This document shows, one piece after another, positions 1-9,316 of a stretch of DNA of 12,461 nucleotides (positions are counted from its first letter, which is position 1; each line of letters begins with the position of its first letter). Source of the DNA: a virus; UHGV virus genome UHGV-0232909; one strand, 5' to 3'. The notes under the pieces are model-generated. The model was not told where the DNA came from. It ran no database searches and saw only the letters and a list, made by a program, of their open reading frames with translations. Position numbers and translations under genes: made by a program.

Positions 1-24
1 AAATGTGTACCGCGAGATCTGAAA

Positions 25-321
25 GTGAATGAAACGGATGCTGAATACCTGGTGCGTAAATTTGATGCGCTTGAAGCTAAATGTGCAGCACTGGAAAACA
101 AAGTAATACCAGTGTCAGCTGAACTGCCGCCAGCGAATGAAAGTGTTCTGTTATTTGATGCTAATGGAGAAGGCTGGCTGATTGGCTGGCGTTCTCTCTG
201 GTATACATGGGGGCAAAAAGAAACCGGAGAATGGCAGTGGACATTTCAGGTCGGGGACCTTGAAAACGTCAACATCACTCACTGGGCAGTAATGCCAAAA
301 GCACCGGAGGCTGGAGCATAA
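25..321 (+). CDS. DUF551-like phage early protein (start uncertain; frame is open to the window edge)
   Basis: 98-aa ORF beginning at a GTG; the same frame is open back to base 1, so the true start may lie upstream. Trp-rich C-terminal half ending ...ITHWAVMPKAPE resembles the DUF551 signature of lambdoid/P22-like early-region proteins. Stop TAA overlaps the next ATG (TAATG at 319-323). Confidence 0.55.
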   Translation: MNETDAEYLVRKFDALEAKCAALENKVIPVSAELPPANESVLLFDANGEGWLIGWRSLWYTWGQKETGEWQWTFQVGDLENVNITHWAVMPKAPEAGA

Positions 322-1130
322 TGACCACATTTACCGATAAAGAACTGATTAAAGAAATCAAAGAACGAATCAGCAGCATGGACGTGCGAGACAATGTTGA
401 GCGCCGTGCTTATGAAATTGCTCTGGCATCGCTGGAAGAGGATCCGGTGGCATGGCTGCATTCAGACAATGGCTTAGGTATTCCGGCAATAACCAGGAGT
501 AAAAACATTGCTGACAGTTGGTTATCAAAGGGCTGGTATGTTCAGCCGCTATATATAGCTAAGCCAGTGCCGGTGGTGCCAGATGCTCGTCCGTCTTTAA
601 ATAATGGCATAGTCGGTTTTGATGAAGGCTGGAACGCCTGCCGCGCTGCCATGCTCTATGGTGCCGTACCTGCAAGCCAGGCTTACAAGTTGCCACAAAC
701 GCAGTTTAAACAGGTTGCTGACCTCTACGAAATGCAATTTGATGACGGTCGCACTTGTGCCTTTCACACTGATGCGCAAAAGGCTGTGCAATGGCTTCAG
801 GCGTGCGACGGAAACAGGGTTCAGGAATACGTTAAGCTGGAACGATTGCAGAACGCACTGTCTGGCAACTCTCCGGTAACTCCGGATGGTTGGGTTATGG
901 TGCCGAAGAGACTAACAGCCGAGAACGGCGCTAAGGGGGCGCTATCCGGTGAATTTTCAGAAACTACGTTTATAAGCTGCCTGGAATGCTTTGGCGATGA
1001 TGATTGCGATACCTGTGACGGGAGCGGACGTATTGAAATTAAAGTGCCAGTCACGTGGTCGACCATAAAATCTATCTGGGATAAAGGTATCGAGTATTTT
1101 GCAGCAAAACCATCACAAGAGGTGAAGTGA
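321..1130 (+). CDS. hypothetical phage early protein with C-terminal CxxC-x5-CxxCxGxG zinc-ribbon motif
   Basis: 269-aa ORF with ATG at 321 and GGAG 4 nt upstream. C-terminus CLECFGDDDCDTCDGSGRIEIK is a DnaJ-like zinc-finger motif. Its stop TGA (1128-1130) overlaps the ATG of the exonuclease gene. No family recognised for the N-terminal 200 aa. Confidence 0.6.
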   Translation: MTTFTDKELIKEIKERISSMDVRDNVERRAYEIALASLEEDPVAWLHSDNGLGIPAITRSKNIADSWLSKGWYVQPLYIAKPVPVVPDARPSLNNGIVGFDEGWNACRAAMLYGAVPASQAYKLPQTQFKQVADLYEMQFDDGRTCAFHTDAQKAVQWLQACDGNRVQEYVKLERLQNALSGNSPVTPDGWVMVPKRLTAENGAKGALSGEFSETTFISCLECFGDDDCDTCDGSGRIEIKVPVTWSTIKSIWDKGIEYFAAKPSQEVK

Positions 1131-1702
1131 TGAACAACTTAATGATCGACCTTGAGACGATGGGGAAAAATAAGGATGCACCGATCGTTTCCATTGGCGC
1201 GGTGTTCTTCACTCCAGAAACCGGAGACATCGGACAAGAATTCTATACGGTTGTTAGCCTGGAAAGTGCTATGGGGCAAGGAGCTACACCTGACGGCGAT
1301 ACCATCCTGTGGTGGTTGAAACAAAGCCCTGAAGCACGAGCTGCAATCTGTATTGATGATACTTTGTCGATCAGCGATGCTCTCTCAGAACTAAATCATT
1401 TCATTAACCGGCACGCAGACAATACGAAATATTTAAAAGTCTGGGGTAACGGAGCCACCTTCGACAACGTAATTTTACGTGGAGCTTATGAGCGAGCAGG
1501 ACAAATCTGCCCGTGGGCATACTGGAATGACCACGATGTACGCACGATCGTTACGCTTGGGCGTTCCATCGGATTCGACCCCAAAATGGACATGCCTTTC
1601 GATGGCGAACGGCACAACGCCCTGGCTGATGCCCGTCATCAGGCAAAATATGTTTCCGCTATCTGGCAGAAATTAATTCCTGCCACCAGCACAGAATTAT
1701 GA
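1130..1702 (+). CDS. DEDDh-family 3'-5' exonuclease (DnaQ/RNase T-like), phage-encoded
   Basis: Exo I motif MIDLETMG (D-x-E), Exo II motif WGNGATFDNVIL, Exo III motif HNALADARHQAKY (H-x4-D) are all present in order. The ORF track starts at GTG 1127; ATG at 1130 with GAGG at 1118-1121 is the more likely start. Confidence 0.85.
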   Translation: MNNLMIDLETMGKNKDAPIVSIGAVFFTPETGDIGQEFYTVVSLESAMGQGATPDGDTILWWLKQSPEARAAICIDDTLSISDALSELNHFINRHADNTKYLKVWGNGATFDNVILRGAYERAGQICPWAYWNDHDVRTIVTLGRSIGFDPKMDMPFDGERHNALADARHQAKYVSAIWQKLIPATSTEL

Positions 1703-1738
1703 TTTTCCCGGGTGCAGCCGGTTTTGATGGAGAAAATT

Positions 1739-2020
1739 ATGAACACCTTGTTTTTACTGATGGCTGAATTCAATACCCCTAACATTGAACTCTCAGCAGT
1801 TAGCCAAAAGTACTTTGGCATGAGTCCAGCCACGGCAGAAGCAAAAGCAAACGCTTGTAAGTTGCCCGTTCCAACATATCGCATCGGCACATCACAAAAA
1901 GCAAAACGTTGCATCAATATTCAGGATCTTGCGGAATACATAGACAAAAGACGAGAAGAAGGACGTATCGAGTGGGAACAGGTCAGAACAAGCAAACAGA
2001 AGGGCAAAGAACATCACTAA
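1739..2020 (+). CDS. PrtN/excisionase-like small DNA-binding protein (putative Xis)
   Basis: N-terminus MNTLFLLMAEF... is typical of the PrtN / prophage excisionase-like family. GGAG at 1729-1732 sits 6 nt before ATG 1739; the longer ORF-track version starts at GTG 1712 without an RBS. Located upstream of, and in the same orientation as, the integrase. Confidence 0.65.
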   Translation: MNTLFLLMAEFNTPNIELSAVSQKYFGMSPATAEAKANACKLPVPTYRIGTSQKAKRCINIQDLAEYIDKRREEGRIEWEQVRTSKQKGKEHH

Positions 2021-2022
2021 AT

Positions 2023-2050
2023 AAAAAACCCGCCTAAAGGCGGGTTTTCA
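2023..2050. terminator. bidirectional rho-independent terminator
   Basis: AAAAAA-CCCGCC-TAAA-GGCGGG-TTTT: a perfect 6-bp GC stem (2029-2034 / 2039-2044) with a 4-nt loop, flanked by an A-run upstream and a T-run downstream, so it gives a U-tract on either strand. It lies between the convergent genes ending at 2020 (+) and 2068 (-). Confidence 0.7.
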
Positions 2051-2067
2051 AAAAGCACCAGCTATGA

Positions 2068-2241
2068 TCATGCTGCTTTGCGACGACGAAGCTTACCCTG
2101 CTGCTCTTTACCAGAGACAGTAGCGTGAGTGAACGCATTATGAGCAGCCTTCATCAGAACTTCAACAGCAGCACCCATACCTGCGAATGCTTTCATTGTG
2201 TCGAACTTAACCTGTGGCTTGGTTGCTTTTTGATCTTCCAT
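2068..2241 (-). CDS. small basic-tailed protein (57 aa), third gene of the minus-strand accessory cassette; absent from the ORF track
   Basis: Hand translation of the minus strand: MEDQKATKPQVKFDTMKAFAGMGAAVEVLMKAAHNAFTHATVSGKEQQGKLRRRKAA. A strong SD (AGGAG) sits 7 nt upstream of the ATG (ATG = complement of 2239-2241). Stop at 2068-2070, immediately followed by the bidirectional terminator. Confidence 0.45.
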   Translation of the reverse strand: MEDQKATKPQVKFDTMKAFAGMGAAVEVLMKAAHNAFTHATVSGKEQQGKLRRRKAA

Positions 2242-2280
2242 AGAAAACTCCTGAAGTTATACCGAAACAATTCCTGTTGT

Positions 2281-2700
2281 TTACTCATCATCAATAGATG
2301 ATACGCAATATTTATTTTTAAATTTAAGGTTCTTTGGCGTAACTTCATCAGAGATATCAAAACCGTCCAGAATTCTATTGAATGTAGCTTCTGGCATATC
2401 ATCATGAACAGAAATCTCACCCGATCGCTGCTTTCTAACCATGTTATCCACTCGCCAAATTATAGCTTCAGCGTAAACAACATAACTTGGATGCTTGATA
2501 AAGCGATGATCACCAGAATTCAAGATGCAAGACGGATCGTGGGGGACACCATCCTTGATACTAGAAATATTAACAACTAAAACACAATAACAATCGTTAA
2601 CGGGGTAATAAACAGGATCATTACAAATCACATGAAGATGATTGCATGGCCCAGTTGGGGCAAGCACAGTTCCTTTCCTGTATGGCTGATAATCCGTCAT
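2281..2700 (-). CDS. unknown 139-aa protein translationally coupled to the Panacea-domain gene (candidate toxin/effector)
   Basis: ATGA overlap with the upstream gene (stop/start share 2697-2700). No recognised family. Cys/His-rich N-terminal half (CNHLHVICNDP...DCYC...DPSC...DHRFIKHPS) and acidic C-terminus (SSIDDE). AT-rich codon usage unlike the flanking phage genes. Confidence 0.65.
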   Translation of the reverse strand: MTDYQPYRKGTVLAPTGPCNHLHVICNDPVYYPVNDCYCVLVVNISSIKDGVPHDPSCILNSGDHRFIKHPSYVVYAEAIIWRVDNMVRKQRSGEISVHDDMPEATFNRILDGFDISDEVTPKNLKFKNKYCVSSIDDE

Positions 2701-3269
2701 GATAATTGCAAAGAAAATTCCTTAAGTTTCTGAGATTCTTCCATTTTGCCAATTATGCGATTAGCCTCATCCTCGCTTTTACCCTCACTGATCAGCATTT
2801 CTTTCAGGTCTATAGGCTTACGAGAATTGCCAGGATCGTGCCACTCTGGACAAACGCTTTCTAAATGCGTCATATTTGCGAGATCAAATCGGTTCATATG
2901 CCCATACCGAGAATAGATTTCATCTAAAATCCGGATATCTGCACGACTCAATTCATCAAAGACCTCGTCTGCATCCATTTCCCTCGGATCTGAACGCAAC
3001 GATACATTATGCCCGTTCGTCTCTATCAAGTTGTACCAGTAGTCACCAATGCCTTCAGCCTTACCGCGAATCAAGTTCAGCGTATTCGACATGACTGGTC
3101 CAAATTTCATAGAGTAAAGGCTATCTTCGCCGATCATCCTGCCATGCTTCAAAATCGACTGGCGGTTAGACAGATAGAGCAACTTCATCAATTTCAGATA
3201 TGCCATGCGCCCACCTCGCTTAAGAAGTAGGTATGCAGCCATTTGAGCTACTTTTTCTTCGCAAAACAT
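2697..3269 (-). CDS. Panacea-domain protein (SocA/PanA-like; DUF4065), putative antitoxin
   Basis: 190-aa ORF. The segment AAYLLLKRGG-RMAYLKLMKLLYLSN...KFGPV matches the Panacea-domain core pattern (K-L-x-K-L-L-Y ... G-P-V). GAGG lies upstream of the ATG (complement of 3267-3269). First gene of a three-gene minus-strand operon. Confidence 0.75.
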   Translation of the reverse strand: MFCEEKVAQMAAYLLLKRGGRMAYLKLMKLLYLSNRQSILKHGRMIGEDSLYSMKFGPVMSNTLNLIRGKAEGIGDYWYNLIETNGHNVSLRSDPREMDADEVFDELSRADIRILDEIYSRYGHMNRFDLANMTHLESVCPEWHDPGNSRKPIDLKEMLISEGKSEDEANRIIGKMEESQKLKEFSLQLS

Positions 3270-3660
3270 ATAAGAAACCTCAAAGATAGTGAACTTTATA
3301 ATTATTCTCGATACTTCATGGGTTGCTTCATCACCAACACGAGCTTCTTATGGTGTGCCCACTTGGGCCTAAGCAACCAGTTACCTCGTTTGTCAAGTTT
3401 ATAGCTGGCTTTAACCATGGTCAATTGAAGTGATGAGCAAATGATGCTTTCTAAGAATAACAGGTTCCCAATAGGCTCCCACAAAGTGTATAACTAGTTG
3501 TTTTTCAAAAACGGTACATCCTATCGAGCATAGGAGCAATGCTAAACCGAGAATTCCAGTAAACACCAGTTTTTTCAGGCATCACGCTGGTTTGATTAAT
3601 TTTTTGTGTTTCATGATTATCGTGCATTTTTGAACATTTCAGGCTATTTTTCTCGCATTA

Positions 3661-3696
3661 GGTTCCCGCACAGGTTCCCACGTTTTATGGGAACCC
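3661..3696. promoter_or_regulatory. cluster of GGTTCCC(A) repeats immediately upstream of int (candidate operator or integrase arm-type sites)
   Basis: GGTTCCC at 3661-3667 and 3673-3679 (direct) and GGGAACC at 3689-3695 (inverted), giving the palindrome GGTTCCCA-cgtttta-TGGGAACC. A second pair, CAGGTTCCCA / AGGCTCCCA, lies at 3461-3480. The int RBS (GAGG, 3705-3708) and ATG (3716) follow directly. Confidence 0.3.
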
Positions 3697-3715
3697 GAAA
3701 TAACGAGGTCGTGTA

Positions 3716-4813
3716 ATGGCGTACTATAACATAGAGAAACGACTAAAATCCGATGGCACACCACGCTATCGCTGTAATGTGATTATCAAAGAAAAAGGTG
3801 TTATCACTTACAGGGAAAGCAAAACATTCCCTAAACATGCTCATGCCAAAACATGGGGCACACAGAAAGTGATGGAATTAGATCTATATGGCATTCCATC
3901 ATCAAATGCAGTTGACGGACTTACAGTCCGTGACTTACTACACAAATATTTAAATGACCCAAATGCCGGAGGTAAAGCAGGCCGTACTAAAAGATATGTG
4001 CTGGAACTGCTTATGGATAGTGACATCTCCGCGATCAAACTATCTGAACTGACAGAAAATGACGTAATTGAACATTGCAGGCTAAGAAACAACGCTGGCG
4101 CAGGTCCAGCAACAGTCAGCCACGATGTTAGTTATCTTGGCAGTGTTCTGGATGCGGCCAAACCTGTATACGGAATTAATTACACATCAAACCCGGCGAA
4201 AAGTGCTCGTCCATATCTACTTAAACTTGGTTTGATTGGTAAATCAAACCGTCGTAATCGTAGACCAGCATCTGATGAACTGGACATGCTCATTGAAGGC
4301 CTTCAACAACGATCTACTCATAAATGCTCAAAAATTCCGTTCGTTGATATCCTCAAATTTTCTGTGTGGTCCTGTATGCGAATCGGAGAAGTATGCCGGT
4401 TACGATGGGAAGATCTCGACCAGGAACAAAAATCTATACTCGTAAGAGACAGGAAAGATCCACGCAAAAAGGAAGGCAACCACATGAAAGTAGCCTTGCT
4501 TGGGGAAGCCTGGGATATCGTCCAACGACAGCCCAAAAAATCGGAATTCATTTTTCCATATAACAGCACTTCTATTACTGCGGGATTTCAGAGGGTAAGA
4601 AGCAAATTAGGTATTAAGGATCTGCGATACCATGATTTGCGTAGAGAAGGGGCAAGTCGCTTATTTGAGGCTGGTTTTAGTATTGAGGAAGTAGCCCAGG
4701 TTACAGGGCATCGTTCATTAAACGTGCTATGGCAGGTATATACCGAACTGTATCCGAAATCTTTACATAATCGTTTTGAAGAGCTCCAAAGGAGCAGAAA
4801 TAAGACCCCTTGA
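3716..4813 (+). CDS. int: tyrosine-type site-specific integrase
   Basis: 365-aa ORF with RBS GAGG 7 nt upstream. Carries the conserved tyrosine-recombinase boxes: MRIGEVCRLRWEDLD (Arg box), HDLRREGASRL (H-x-x-R) and a C-terminal GHRSLNVLWQVYTELY with the candidate catalytic Tyr. Confidence 0.9.
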   Translation: MAYYNIEKRLKSDGTPRYRCNVIIKEKGVITYRESKTFPKHAHAKTWGTQKVMELDLYGIPSSNAVDGLTVRDLLHKYLNDPNAGGKAGRTKRYVLELLMDSDISAIKLSELTENDVIEHCRLRNNAGAGPATVSHDVSYLGSVLDAAKPVYGINYTSNPAKSARPYLLKLGLIGKSNRRNRRPASDELDMLIEGLQQRSTHKCSKIPFVDILKFSVWSCMRIGEVCRLRWEDLDQEQKSILVRDRKDPRKKEGNHMKVALLGEAWDIVQRQPKKSEFIFPYNSTSITAGFQRVRSKLGIKDLRYHDLRREGASRLFEAGFSIEEVAQVTGHRSLNVLWQVYTELYPKSLHNRFEELQRSRNKTP

Positions 4814-5266: not shown

Positions 5267-5635
5267 TTATTTCGTTTGAATGCCAGTAACAGGAAATCGT
5301 TTATATAGGGTTGATAGCCCAACGTTATAGATACGTGCAACATAACGCCGTGATTTCCCTGCCGCTATGAGCGCTCCCATCTGTTGCCACTGCTCGTCGC
5401 TAAACTTCGGTCTACGCCCACCAATCCGGCCTTTGGATCTGGCAATAGCCAAACCAGCTAAAGTTCGCTCGCTATTCAAATCAGATTCATACTGCGCAGC
5501 AGAAAGAATATTACGGAAATTATAGCGACCACTTGCTGTTTTCAGGTCTACGCCATCTGTAATACTCCGAAAATTAACACCTTTTTCGTGCAGATTTTGA
5601 AACATCAATAGCGCATGCAGCACATTTCTCCCTAA
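5267..5635 (-). pseudogene. pin: N-terminally truncated serine DNA invertase (Pin/Gin/Hin family) remnant
   Basis: The translation ...PLGRN-MLHALLMFQNLHEKGVNFRSITDGVDL...SKGRIGGRRPKFSDEQWQQ...YNVGLSTLYK matches the C-terminal two thirds of Pin/Gin (LGRSMKHLISLVGELRERGINFRSLTDSIDT...NKGRIGGRPPKL...ALSTLYKK). The roughly 70 N-terminal residues, including the catalytic Ser region, are absent; similarity stops near 5636 and no ATG-initiated full-length frame exists. Confidence 0.8.
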
Positions 5636-5641
5636 GGGGAA

Positions 5642-6001
5642 TTGTCTGCTGCTGGGGTTAGCGGTGGCGCTGCATCTGCTTCAGGATACATCACCATTCC
5701 GATGATTATTAATGGAGCAAGGCGGGTCTTATACATCCAATGGGGGGGATTTACAGGAACTACAGATAGCTCCGGCTCCAACGGAATATATGAAACCTCA
5801 AATATCACCGTCACCTGGACAGTTGCTTTCCCCAATGCGGTTTTCCAGGTGATAACAGGCGGTTCATCTGATGTTAGTGGTGTCGGGCAGCAAGAGATGG
5901 CATGGAGTCTGGGCAAAACAAAAACTAATGGGATTTTTGGTTTTCAATGCCGGACACCAAACGCATCGATGACTGGCTCATATCTTGTAATTGGTTATTA
6001 A
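5642..6001 (+). CDS. tail-fibre C-terminal (variable-domain) cassette lacking an N-terminal anchor domain; silent alternative segment
   Basis: Gly/Ser/Thr-rich beta-type sequence typical of phage tail-fibre distal domains. The frame opens at 5636 exactly where invertase homology ends on the other strand; only a TTG start (5642) is available. Directly followed by a tfa gene, the usual Sv'-U' arrangement of Mu G / P1 C / e14 invertible segments. Confidence 0.55.
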   Translation: MSAAGVSGGAASASGYITIPMIINGARRVLYIQWGGFTGTTDSSGSNGIYETSNITVTWTVAFPNAVFQVITGGSSDVSGVGQQEMAWSLGKTKTNGIFGFQCRTPNASMTGSYLVIGY

Positions 6002-6014
6002 ACGAGGACATCAC

Positions 6015-6491
6015 ATGAGATTTTCAGTTAGCACCCAATCATTCTACGATGATAATTACGAGGAAAACGCAGTAGTCAACGATTTACCCTCAGATGTTCA
6101 GGCGATAGATGATGAGCAATATGCTAGTTTTTTTAATGCAATAAATAGTGACCGGGTGGTTTATCTGGTTGCTGACGAATTCACGATTTCTCAACCCCGC
6201 CCCGATAAATACTATTCATGGGATATGACAAGTAAGACCTGGGCTATGACTGATGCTGCCGTAGCACAAAAGTCGGCAGACCTGATAGCTGATGCTGAGC
6301 TACGGAGAACAACGTCGTTATCAGCAGCAGGTATCGCAATATCCCCGCTGCAAGATGCCGTTGATCTGGGTATGGCTACAGATGTAGAAACGAGGCGACT
6401 GACAGAATGGAAAAAATATCGGGTATTGCTGATGCGTATTGATACATCAAAAGCCCCCGATATCGAATGGCCATCAGTACCGGTCAGTTGA
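6015..6491 (+). CDS. tfa: tail fibre assembly protein (Tfa/gpU-like chaperone)
   Basis: C-terminal region [50 protein letters not shown] matches the conserved Tfa C-terminus (APLQDAADL...[22 protein letters not shown]). ATG at 6015 with GAGGA 6 nt upstream; the ORF-track start at 5991 is a TTG. Confidence 0.8.
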   Translation: [158 protein letters not shown]

Positions 6492-6648
6492 CAAATGGAT
6501 TAGTAGACGATGATAAGAAGGTAACGTAGCGTTCGTCATCATCGTCTATTTCTTCAATGCCTGGATAAACAGTTTCATCTTGCGGACTGTAGAAAACCGC
6601 GCTGATCTCCTTTTTCGTGGAGTCTTTAAAAAGAACATAGATTTTCAT
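6484..6648 (-). CDS. small acidic ORF (54 aa) translationally coupled to the tail-fibre gene; absent from the ORF track
   Basis: Hand translation: [54 protein letters not shown]. Its ATG overlaps the tail-fibre stop (ATGA at 6646-6650). Its 3' end overlaps the convergent tfa gene by 8 nt (6484-6491). It occupies the position where a cognate tfa would be expected. Confidence 0.4.
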   Translation of the reverse strand: MKIYVLFKDSTKKEISAVFYSPQDETVYPGIEEIDDDDERYVTFLSSSTNPFVN

Positions 6649-7679
6649 CAGAATGAGTACCCCGTTGAATAAATTGTTGATGCCGTTGGTGTGCCGCCAA
6701 ACAAAATCTGGTAATAAATTTTCTGCGGCTCAGCAATCATCAAGTTTGAGAAAACAGATGAAATACCAGAGTTATTATTCCCCTGGGTTCGTAAGCCCAA
6801 CGGGTAGGATTTTGACGATACGGCAAATGAGTTATTTGTTGCTGGCGCTGTAGAGTTAATTAACCCCCAGCCTTCCATTGTTTTGGCGTTTTTAGGAATG
6901 GCTGAAGATACAGAAAGCTCAGTCAGTGTAGAAACCGTGTTTGTTACAGTGACAAGAGGTTGCTCTGGCGTGTTAATTTGCCTTCCCATCATCTCACCGA
7001 CAGTGAACTGGCTTGATGCTACTCTCCACACGCTAACCAATGCAGATGCCGTATAGCCTGCTGGTAGATTTGCACCGCCATAAATTTCTGGCGCGGTGGT
7101 CGTCGTTGCATTCACTGCAAGGAGTGCTGTTGCCCCGTTCGTCGGATTTAAAATTGCGTACAGGGCAATAAATCCAGCTGTCGGAACAGTCCCTGTGTCC
7201 ATACCTCCCGCGCCGGTTGTGCCGAGATTAATCGTCTTATTGAATGCACTTAGCCGGTATTGCTGCCCGGTGCTCGTCTCTACGATCAATTCATCGGCTG
7301 TAAAGGTTGCTGTCGATGATGCGGCGGCGATGCTCATACGCGCATTTCTGGATTGACCAACAACACCCGAAAACGATTCTCGCAATTGAAGGTTTTCGAG
7401 AGCCGTTTTCACCGTGCCATCCGATTTGATATCGCCAAACGGATTCTTGCGGCTTAACAGCAGCGCACGAAGCGCGGTAAGCAGCTGGTCGTGCCGCGCC
7501 TTCTCCAGACTGGCACCGGATGCCTCAACAACGCTACAAAGTTCTTCCTGCAACATGTCAAAGTAGTCATCATCCAGATCGGTGGCAGGGGTGCCGGTCT
7601 GGGGGTTACCACGGGTAAAACCGTTCTTACCCGCGCCGAACTTATCCTTCTGCGCGGTTTTCGTGTCTATACGATGCAT
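6648..7679 (-). CDS. tail fibre protein (complete, 343 aa)
   Basis: Conserved phage tail-fibre N-terminus [47 protein letters not shown]... followed by a Gly/Thr/Ala/Ser-rich distal domain. Last gene of the baseplate operon, in the position of Mu S / P2 H. Confidence 0.85.
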
Positions 7680-7682
7680 GGA

Positions 7683-8267
7683 TTACTCCGGATATTTAAA
7701 AATTACGTAGGTATGCGACGGGCAGAGTTTGTTAAGCACACACTCGACAACGGTGTCGCCCCAGATACGCAGTGCGGAATCACAGGGATCGCCACATGTC
7801 ATCCAGGTGGTGTTGGTGGTGGTTGGCATGTTGACCTGCCAGTAATACCGCCATTCCGGCGCATTCACCGCGTCAGTACAGGCCGATGAGCAGGTGAACG
7901 TGCTTTTGTCGTATCGCGTGATGGTGGCATCTGGTCTGCCCAGGGCAGCAAGCTGTGCAAGATAAAAATCCTCGTTGATGCCGCCCGCCAGGTTAACCTT
8001 CGCATCCAGCCGTTGCTGACGCTGGCGAAGGGTCTGCGTTCCCGCCGGAATACATTCATCCGGCAGACCGCACAGACGCTCCCAGCGGTTTATCAGTTCA
8101 GTGGTGGTGCGCGGATCCAGCTCCCGCATCAGGGCATCCGCACGCTGATGAACACGGGTTAATGACGGTGCCGCACCGGCAATCGCCGGATCGCTGGCTG
8201 ACCACGCCGGACCGGGCGGCAACAGTGCCGATAACAGGCGGATGTAATCATCGTTTGTCACGTCCAT
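7683..8267 (-). CDS. Mu gp48-like baseplate/tail protein (DUF2313, YmfQ-like)
   Basis: 194-aa protein in the position and size class of Mu gp48 / e14 YmfQ, directly upstream of the tail-fibre gene. Cys-rich C-terminal third. Overlaps the upstream gene by 10 nt. Confidence 0.8.
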
Positions 8268-9316
8268 GAAATCGTCCCCAGTACCGCCAGTTCGTTTTTC
8301 GCAATGGAGATATTGTCCACCGGTGCAAGCAACTGATGGCTGTATTCCCCGTTCGCACCGGAAATCGCCTCACTGATACGCGATACCTTCAGTTCTCCCT
8401 GCGGATAACCATCACGCAGCAGGAACGAACGCAACTCCGCGGTAATGGCAGCCCGTATTTCCGGTGTGTCCGGCGTCACGCGGATATGAAAATCCACCGT
8501 ATGTGCCACCGGCCTGAATACATACAAATCAGAGCCTGCCACCGGGGCCAGTGGCCCGATATGTTGTCTTGCTGCCGTTTCCGTTGATTCTTCCGGAATG
8601 GGATTAATCAGGTCACTGCTGGCAATCATCACACCGACAGTTCCCGTTCCCATCCAGTGACGGTATGTCCATGCGCGGGTAATGCCGGGCACTTCTTTAG
8701 CCCAGACGACATAGTCCCCGTCAGCCCCGCCCTGCGGCGTCCAGTAATACCGCTCAATGACGCGGGCGCGCCACGTTTCCAGATCTTCTGTATCAAATCC
8801 GCCTGTCAGGGTGTCAGTCACACCGGAAGACGGCAGACCATTCACCGGCGTGACCAGGATTAATGCCGTACCATCGTCAGCGTTACCGACCGCGCCTGTA
8901 GTTGAGCAAGTGATCGGCACACGCAGGACACCACCGGAGCTGGTTGCATCGGCAGTTGCCGTGTACTGAACCAGGTCATCGCGCTGAATCACGCTCCCGG
9001 CAGTCACCTTCAGGCCATCGCTGACACCTTCCCAGCGCATATACCCGCTGGCAGCCGTGGCCCCCTTGCGCGGACACCGTTTCATCGCAGCATGTCGCGC
9101 CAGCCAGGACTCATCGCACAGGTCAGGCAGCATATTCATTGCCAGATAATCGATGTACCCGTAAACCGTATGCAGCGCCGCCGCATACACCTTTGCCCGC
9201 ACGTCTTCATCCATGCGCCGGAGCGTGTCGCTGACGTCCAGCCTGGCGAATAAATCGTTACGGAGCATACTGATATTTTCTGCCAGCGTCGGGCGCTGAA
9301 ATTCACTGTCCGCCAT
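8258..9316 (-). CDS. baseplate J-like protein (Mu gp47 / P2 gpJ family)
   Basis: 352-aa protein in the conserved order gp46-gp47-gp48. ATG at the complement of 9314-9316. Overlaps both neighbours, indicating translational coupling. Confidence 0.85.

Follow-up and report, generated by a model that had tools for sequence, protein, structure and literature searches.

A 54-residue stand-alone relative of tail-fibre assembly protein N-domains, predicted to partner an all-beta fibre tip

Gene content of the locus

The window, the whole 12,461-nucleotide stretch that we analysed from the virus genome UHGV-0232909, carries on its minus strand a Mu/e14-like baseplate module that is closed by a tail-fibre gene. 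Genes for gp48/YmfQ (7683..8267) and Baseplate_J (8258..9316) lie next to the fibre gene, then those for GP46, Gp45 and a gp44-like hub. The expressed fibre (6648..7679, minus strand) has 343 aa and matches phrog_1396 over residues 1-149 and phrog_11518 over residues 99-343. Its residues 1-98 form a constant, e14/Mu-S-like N-terminus and residues 99-343 a variable tip; the match to Mu S itself is weak and covers residues 37-108. The tip module (6651..7385, minus strand) is all-beta, with a fibre C-terminal domain as its best structural match.

Coupled to the fibre stop is a gene for a 54-aa protein (6484..6648, minus strand). Its ATG start (6648-6646) shares an A with the TGA of the fibre ORF, in a 4-nt ATGA overlap, and its stop codon (6484-6486) lies in an 8-nt overlap (6484-6491) with a convergent tfa gene. 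The latter (6015..6491, plus strand) encodes a canonical tail-fibre assembly protein, Tfa, of 158 aa (Caudo_TAP, E=8e-28; phrog_188). The 54-aa protein has an acidic core, EEIDDDDE, at residues 32-39, and by our count 11 D/E against 5 K/R. An initial annotation had singled out this acidic ORF, its ATGA coupling and its overlap with tfa, and the ORF list, translation and coordinates bear out every detail; it had also remarked that the fibre gene is not followed by a full-length tfa on its own strand, and indeed a search for a second Tfa C-domain in any frame of the whole window left just the one detectable. The Shine-Dalgarno match before the ATG is weak (GGGG, 11 nt upstream). A scan for promoters and terminators gave no signal above shuffle expectation and found no terminator separating the two convergent genes.

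On the plus strand the tfa gene adjoins, in the same orientation, a silent alternative fibre tip, S'v (~118 aa, 5642..6001; Gp53-like_C, E=4e-8), such that both convergent modules of tip plus partner are present in the window. Beside S'v are a half crossover site, AGGGGAA (5635..5641, plus strand; the reverse complement of TTCCCCT), placed by alignment with two homologous loci (L005 and L006), and an invertase remnant of 118 aa (5267..5623, minus strand). The remnant matches only positions 81-144 of the Resolvase profile, together with HTH_7, and is without roughly the first 70 residues, the catalytic part included. Because tip and Tfa modules converge and the invertase is without its catalytic N-terminus, we read the locus as an invertible fibre segment of the Gin/Cin/Pin type with a broken invertase.

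An integrase gene also lies in the window (3716-4813), flanked by genes for DUF551, an Rv2179c-like exoribonuclease, a PrtN-like activator and a SocA/Panacea-domain protein (window 1-3700). In locus L008 and in Escherichia coli ETEC H10407 the integrase abuts dusA directly, unlike in the window, and positions 1-3700 may be a second element in tandem.

The 54-aa ORF has the marks of a real, conserved small gene: its length is conserved, its dN/dS is low, the family profile aligns from its annotated Met, and an AlphaFold2 model of its product is confident. Among 18 close clusters (72-96% identity; from E. coli, Shigella, Kluyvera and Yersinia), 16 have lengths of 53-55 aa, and the two outlying lengths, 49 and 68 aa, both come from contigs of ~1 kb. 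Pairwise dN/dS among four distinct alleles is 0.03-0.16 (Nei-Gojobori), with dS from 0.47 to saturated, and two copies of the gene differ by three synonymous changes only; these values argue for purifying selection. The exact protein is recorded in 78 blocks of the assembly collection.

The AlphaFold2 model, made with a 60-sequence alignment (pLDDT 90.7, pTM 0.70), has a beta-beta-beta-alpha layout. Three strands (residues 2-7, 15-19 and 32-35) precede a helix (39-47), and the acidic stretch accounts for the third strand together with the helix N-cap. D38 and R40 are invariant in a 10-sequence alignment and nearly so across 60 sequences. A search for fold or sequence likeness between the small domain and solved Tfa N-domains found none, and a PDB sequence search with the 54-aa protein returned noise only (E>1).

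The family of the small protein

The 54-aa protein has a full-length match to PHROG 20339, its residues 3-51 aligning with profile positions 2-50 of 62 (E=3.3e-14). Members of that PHROG include proteins like gp16 of Pseudomonas phage PPpW-3, and its annotation appears not to record any tie to tail-fibre chaperones. Searches of Pfam and NCBIfam gave no match, for Pfam even at E<=1. Scans with the single protein recovered one locus among genome contigs (Kluyvera) and three among viral contigs. In a tblastn search of phage genomes, genes of ~60 aa immediately followed that for the fibre in Pseudomonas phages PPpW-3 and Orisa/Orimi and Burkholderia phage Bups phi1, and in Ralstonia phage Raharianne the match was to the N-terminus of the 161-aa gp50, the rest of which is DUF4376. 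Homologues of 57-61 aa are encoded by phages of Pseudomonas, Burkholderia and Yersinia that form plaques or can be induced; the isolated phages with a family gene are PPpW-3, Orisa01, Bups phi1, YeP1 and BcepMu.

Profile methods reached much further. A profile search of 5.8 billion proteins gave 69 members; Caudo_TAP or Phage_tail_APC is present in several of them, at lengths of 109-119 aa. When 1.84 billion representatives were searched exhaustively with HMMER, a cut-off of E<=1e-3 gave 561 cluster representatives, 318 of them at E<=1e-10. Lengths are bimodal among the 150 listed of these 561: 88 representatives have 49-88 aa, none has 90-105 aa, and 62 have 109-223 aa. The stand-alone forms of 49-88 aa are thus the majority among the 150 listed, and they come from Beta- and Gammaproteobacteria and their phages. 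Also among those 150, the small domain sits nearly always at the N-terminus. C-domains of three known chaperone types occur among 66 long members: Phage_tail_APC (16/66), DUF4376 (13/66) and Caudo_TAP (9/66). In one of them, P0025, the small domain (MTTVNVQFSDSNETKIISVFGSPQDAEVWPNQGEVEDTDQRYLDFV...) is joined straight to a WKEYRV...WPAQPQ C-domain, the same as in the Tfa of the window; P0049 likewise combines the small N-domain with PF02413.

A stand-alone subfamily of 72-77 aa (P0032, P0035, P0037, P0057 and P0063) has a conserved extra C-terminal tail (...P..KLKAFL.ANPDVA..L), which matches none of the three known chaperone C-domains.

Since its ~47-residue domain is found elsewhere N-terminal to three types of chaperone C-domain, the 54-aa protein is best described, on homology, as the fibre-specific N-domain of a modular tail-fibre assembly protein in stand-alone form. 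The suggestion that its sequence be aligned with Tfa N-termini therefore has a divided answer: the N-domains of P0025 and P0049 are homologous to it, but those of Mu U and of the window Tfa are not detectably similar. With hhalign, the N-domain alignment met the window Tfa in a 16-residue motif only (probability 6.6%) and showed no credible similarity to Mu U. An apparent similarity to Tfa seen with another alignment (A3) was rejected, being caused solely by the C-domains of the long members in that alignment.

Our literature search turned up no account of a Tfa N-domain that stands alone, nor of this family of small proteins. Large as the family is, the releases of Pfam, NCBIfam and PHROGs that were searched assign it no function; the gene is nevertheless a known kind of accessory gene in a standard position, lacking the domain that defines Tfa.

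The fibre tip and the history of the cassette

The N-termini of the fibres encoded before the small ORF are unrelated (P2 gpH-like Phage_tail_fib, e14/Mu-like and others). What these fibres have in common is a last stretch of ~245 residues (GVVG..RNA.M...SY.F), for which the phmmer E-values in distant phages are 1e-41 to 1e-61. All 13 loci found via the small protein (13/13) have this same tip, and long fused forms of the family also follow it (L019, L021, L023). The tip has 1317 relatives, is present in 36 phage records and has no Pfam model.

The association was also checked from the fibre side, by scanning six frames with the N-domain HMM. A family ORF lies directly downstream in each of the five bacterial loci picked by the fibre alone (L040, L042-L045), and directly after the tip in six of the eight phage records that have the tip whole (BcepMu, PE067, vB_PL1, vB_E433, IPK and YeP1). 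Altogether, a family ORF follows the whole tip in 24/26 examined loci, whatever the N-terminus of the fibre, and in annotated loci the start of the small gene overlaps the fibre stop by 4 nt or follows it after a gap of <=15 nt. We infer from this linkage that the tip module of the window is the cognate partner of the 54-aa protein.

Two of these family members are unannotated in their records: that of BcepMu (L039, NC_005882; ~35270-35461, HMM E 1e-23), between fibre gp52 and a convergent acyltransferase gene, and that of PE067 (L031; 2330-2518, HMM E 1e-24), between fibre PE067_025 and likewise a convergent acyltransferase gene. An O-acetyltransferase or acyltransferase gene convergent to the small ORF, and sometimes overlapping it, recurs in Burkholderia, E. 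coli and Yersinia (L004, L029, L031, L033, L034, L040 and L043); it is possibly a lysogenic-conversion gene that modifies the receptor.

Both exceptions among the whole-tip loci are phages. In phiE131 (L032/L046) no family ORF was found downstream of the tip or anywhere in the 3' 30 kb of the genome, and homology with PE067 ends ~30 nt before the fibre stop; in RS-CA1 (L035) none follows the tip. Since the whole tip occurs there without it, the small ORF may not be strictly required by the tip. Yersinia phage vB_YenM_21.09 (L036) is different again. Of the tip, its fibre (1178-2541) shares just the proximal half (query residues 5-138, 66% identity), and an unrelated 67-aa ORF replaces the family member after the fibre. 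This natural swap is a hint, from a single phage lineage, at a match between the small protein and the distal half of the tip.

The initial annotation had advised comparison with intact homologous loci. Three loci in P2-like prophages (L005-L007) encode the identical 54-aa protein after fibres of 596, 624 and 449 aa, beside full-length invertases of 188-199 aa. Across S'v the window is essentially identical in DNA to L005/L006, where S'v has 100% identity, and by gene calls and translations the Tfa of 158 aa, the 54-aa ORF and the tip are also the same there. In five further loci (L009-L013) live switches carry an allele of 80% identity, P0009, in silent orientation after an S'v of 245 aa. Facing P0009 in convergent orientation is a 59-aa ORF, located after a glycine-rich fibre, and the segment has no Caudo_TAP gene. 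This different 59-aa ORF (MRYALIKNGIVVNIVEWDGEGDLF...; 6199-6378, minus strand) lies directly after the Gly_rich_2 fibre, so both alternative tips of these switches have a mini partner and neither a Caudo_TAP protein; in L009 the glycine-rich fibre gave no match to the ~245-residue tip. Yersinia enterocolitica has the fibre and a 55-aa ORF with no invertase. In one such locus (L018, 77-5994), Baseplate_J/gp48-like genes and extra fibre-like ORFs appear to be duplicated in tandem upstream of the pair of fibre and 55-aa ORF.

The point at which the window departs from its relatives can be placed between 5634 and 5635. In L005/L006 the full second crossover site is TTCCCCTAAACCAACGTTTA, and the window is cut after TTCCCCT (TTCCCCT|AAACCAACGTTTA). 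Beyond TTCCCCT it enters a different invertase allele at about codon 68, and ~270 alignment columns of L005/L006 are absent from it. From the other side, E. coli ETEC H10407 has the same order of dusA, integrase, DinI and invertase, with a full-length 187-aa invertase and a classical segment with two Tfa genes, and its identity to the window stops exactly at 5634. Because the identities end at the crossover-site junction, we regard the window as the product of a recombination that joined a pre-existing cassette to a truncated invertase. On this comparison the 54-aa gene pre-dates that recombination, and decay of the switch is an independent event; the cassette looks to have been imported from a P2-like prophage.

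The other end of the segment is probably marked by a crossover-like site within the fibre gene (7377..7402, minus strand; CTCTCGAAAACC TT CAATTGCGAGAA), which by eye agrees with the second L005 site at 15/26 positions. We interpret it as the crossover site at the constant/variable boundary of the fibre. It is within this site that the window becomes identical to the P2-like cassette of L005, and the S'v ORF of L009 starts at the same residues, LRESFSG, as this boundary. The exact L005 crossover site was not found elsewhere in the window with <=3 mismatches, and an inverted-repeat search at the expected crossover sites of the window and of L005 detected no pair.

Predicted function, alternatives and known systems

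We consider it probable that the 54-aa ORF is a functional gene for a ~47-residue beta-beta-beta-alpha module of the Tfa N-terminal type, which forms a two-gene cassette with the ~245-aa all-beta tip and acts as its chaperone. That the protein binds and chaperones the tip is a prediction from homology and gene linkage. Termination-reinitiation at the ATGA would yield the protein at a near-stoichiometric ratio to the fibre. It would bind the tip, probably with one copy per chain, and would assist or stabilise folding and trimerisation of the tip; it may stay on the tip, as Mu Tfa does. The helical Tfa C-domain appears optional for this tip type, whose fold may need no external trimerising helix bundle. 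The cassette would represent the expressed orientation of an invertible segment, later frozen by the rearrangement that truncated the invertase, with the opposite-strand Tfa serving the silent tip.

A bolder form of this proposal, which we hold only tentatively, is that the 47-residue domain alone is a sufficient dedicated partner for the widespread all-beta tip, the Tfa C-domain being an add-on gained and lost repeatedly in three types, and that the mini-protein is perhaps a virion tip cap that aids receptor recognition. If so, no known chaperone or adaptor of tail fibres would be smaller, and the mini-protein would offer a minimal system for separating the fibre-binding from the oligomerising function of Tfa.

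Among alternatives, the one that survives best is that the small gene is a hitch-hiker, encoding an accessory protein rather than an assembly factor, for example a virion tip cap that modulates receptor binding or a peptide for lysogenic conversion or exclusion. The end of a tail operon is a common site of accessory genes, acyltransferase genes of the kind described above neighbour the cassette in several loci, and two phages have the tip without the small ORF. Mu Tfa, moreover, remains on its fibre and aids LPS binding, according to the citation of that work in PMC8174754. We nevertheless think this reading unlikely, since the same domain is repeatedly fused to three different chaperone C-domains, the small gene is translationally coupled to the fibre gene by the ATGA overlap, and it is strictly co-inherited with one tip fold in unrelated tail modules; by eye, the 54-aa protein shows neither a signal peptide nor a transmembrane segment.

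Less likely still is a split chaperone, in which the 54-aa protein only recognises the fibre and a Tfa C-domain acting in trans, from the opposite strand or another prophage, drives trimerisation. In the modular model as outlined in PMC9608196, which summarises North et al. 2019, and in PMC8174754, with structures of Mu Tfa and Pam3 gp25, a variable N-domain binds the fibre tip and a conserved helical C-domain trimerises, so the C-domain is the oligomerising part. The window and L005-L008 do have a Caudo_TAP gene on the opposite strand that adjoins the 54-aa ORF, at a distance given as 8 nt. Enterobacterial hosts usually carry several prophage tfa genes, and host prophages could have supplied Tfa C-domains in trans to the phages examined. 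Against this, the cassettes of L009-L013 and the Yersinia loci have the stand-alone protein with no Caudo_TAP gene nearby, and the whole genomes of PPpW-3 and BcepMu encode no Tfa C-domain that phmmer --max could find in any frame, a search whose controls (Mu U, Mu U' and the window Tfa) were all recovered. Frozen orientation would also leave the opposite-strand tfa without the fibre-operon promoter, and that Tfa travels with a gp53-like tip elsewhere: in E. coli CFSAN064036 the same pair of S'v and Tfa is the expressed fibre end with its Tfa. The opposite-strand Tfa thus looks cognate to the silent gp53-like tip and not to the expressed fibre. The initial annotation had reasoned that the expressed fibre, were its own chaperone truncated, would have to rely on the opposite-strand Tfa; given this pairing, and the stand-alone cassettes and genomes without a Tfa C-domain, such a need is unlikely.

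That annotation had offered two readings of the ORF itself. The first, a pseudogene representing the 5' stump of a full-length cognate tfa whose 3' half was lost when the switch decayed, is highly improbable: although the ORF occupies the place of a cognate tfa, some Tfa proteins of full length begin with a homologous domain and the switch of the window is truly broken, the identical protein is encoded beside intact invertases, relatives occur in live switches and isolated phages, alleles of Yersinia, Kluyvera and E. coli have equal length despite saturated synonymous divergence and are under purifying selection, stand-alone forms predominate among the 150 family members listed, and the window is 100% identical to an intact-switch cassette as far as the crossover site. 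The second reading, a distinct mini-chaperone, is the one that gains from homology, the domain being the N-module of proteins that end in Caudo_TAP, Phage_tail_APC or DUF4376. The annotation had also foreseen that a conserved full-length homologue might prove to have an unrelated function: the conservation is there, and no unrelated function is known.

If the 54-aa protein is the dedicated chaperone that we favour, several consequences follow. The expressed fibre here would be independent of the opposite-strand Tfa. Among the members listed, most have the fibre-specific module without the conserved C-domain, which questions the generality of the model in which the C-domain drives trimerisation, and the family offers a very small experimental system for that question. 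Phages and tailocins are retargeted by exchanging receptor-binding modules, and exchanges often fail when the cognate chaperone is missed. Transplants of this tip, with its >1,300 relatives, should include the 54-aa partner ORF; the small partner is unannotated altogether in the records of BcepMu and PE067.

The closest known class is that of Tfa/Caudo_TAP proteins (Mu U, lambda Tfa, P2 G; PF02413), whose genes follow the fibre gene directly on the same strand and are co-inherited with the tip in Gin/Cin/Pin-type invertible segments. The 54-aa protein is like them in its homology to the N-module of some (P0025, P0049) and in its adjacency to the fibre and co-variation with the tip, as found in 24/26 whole-tip loci. 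It differs in being without the defining C-terminal domain (AT…WK.YRV…WP..P) and in having ~1/3 of the usual length. The window segment, for its part, differs from Gin/Cin/Pin-type segments in that its invertase has no intact catalytic N-terminal domain. As far as PMC9608196 describes them, Pam3 gp25 and Mu TfaMu have, like the 54-aa protein, a small, beta-rich N-module that binds the fibre and is variable and tip-specific, but they need or carry a helical trimerising C-domain, which is absent from most of the small-family members listed. Another known class is that of chaperones with Phage_tail_APC (PF16778) or DUF4376 (PF14301), such as gp27 of Alteromonas phage V22 and A5 gp9 (PMC10579305) and Raharianne gp50; proteins that join the same N-domain to these C-domains directly follow fibres with the same tip, whereas the window protein has neither C-domain. 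With PHROG 20339, finally, the window protein matches over its full length, with no difference in sequence to set it apart.
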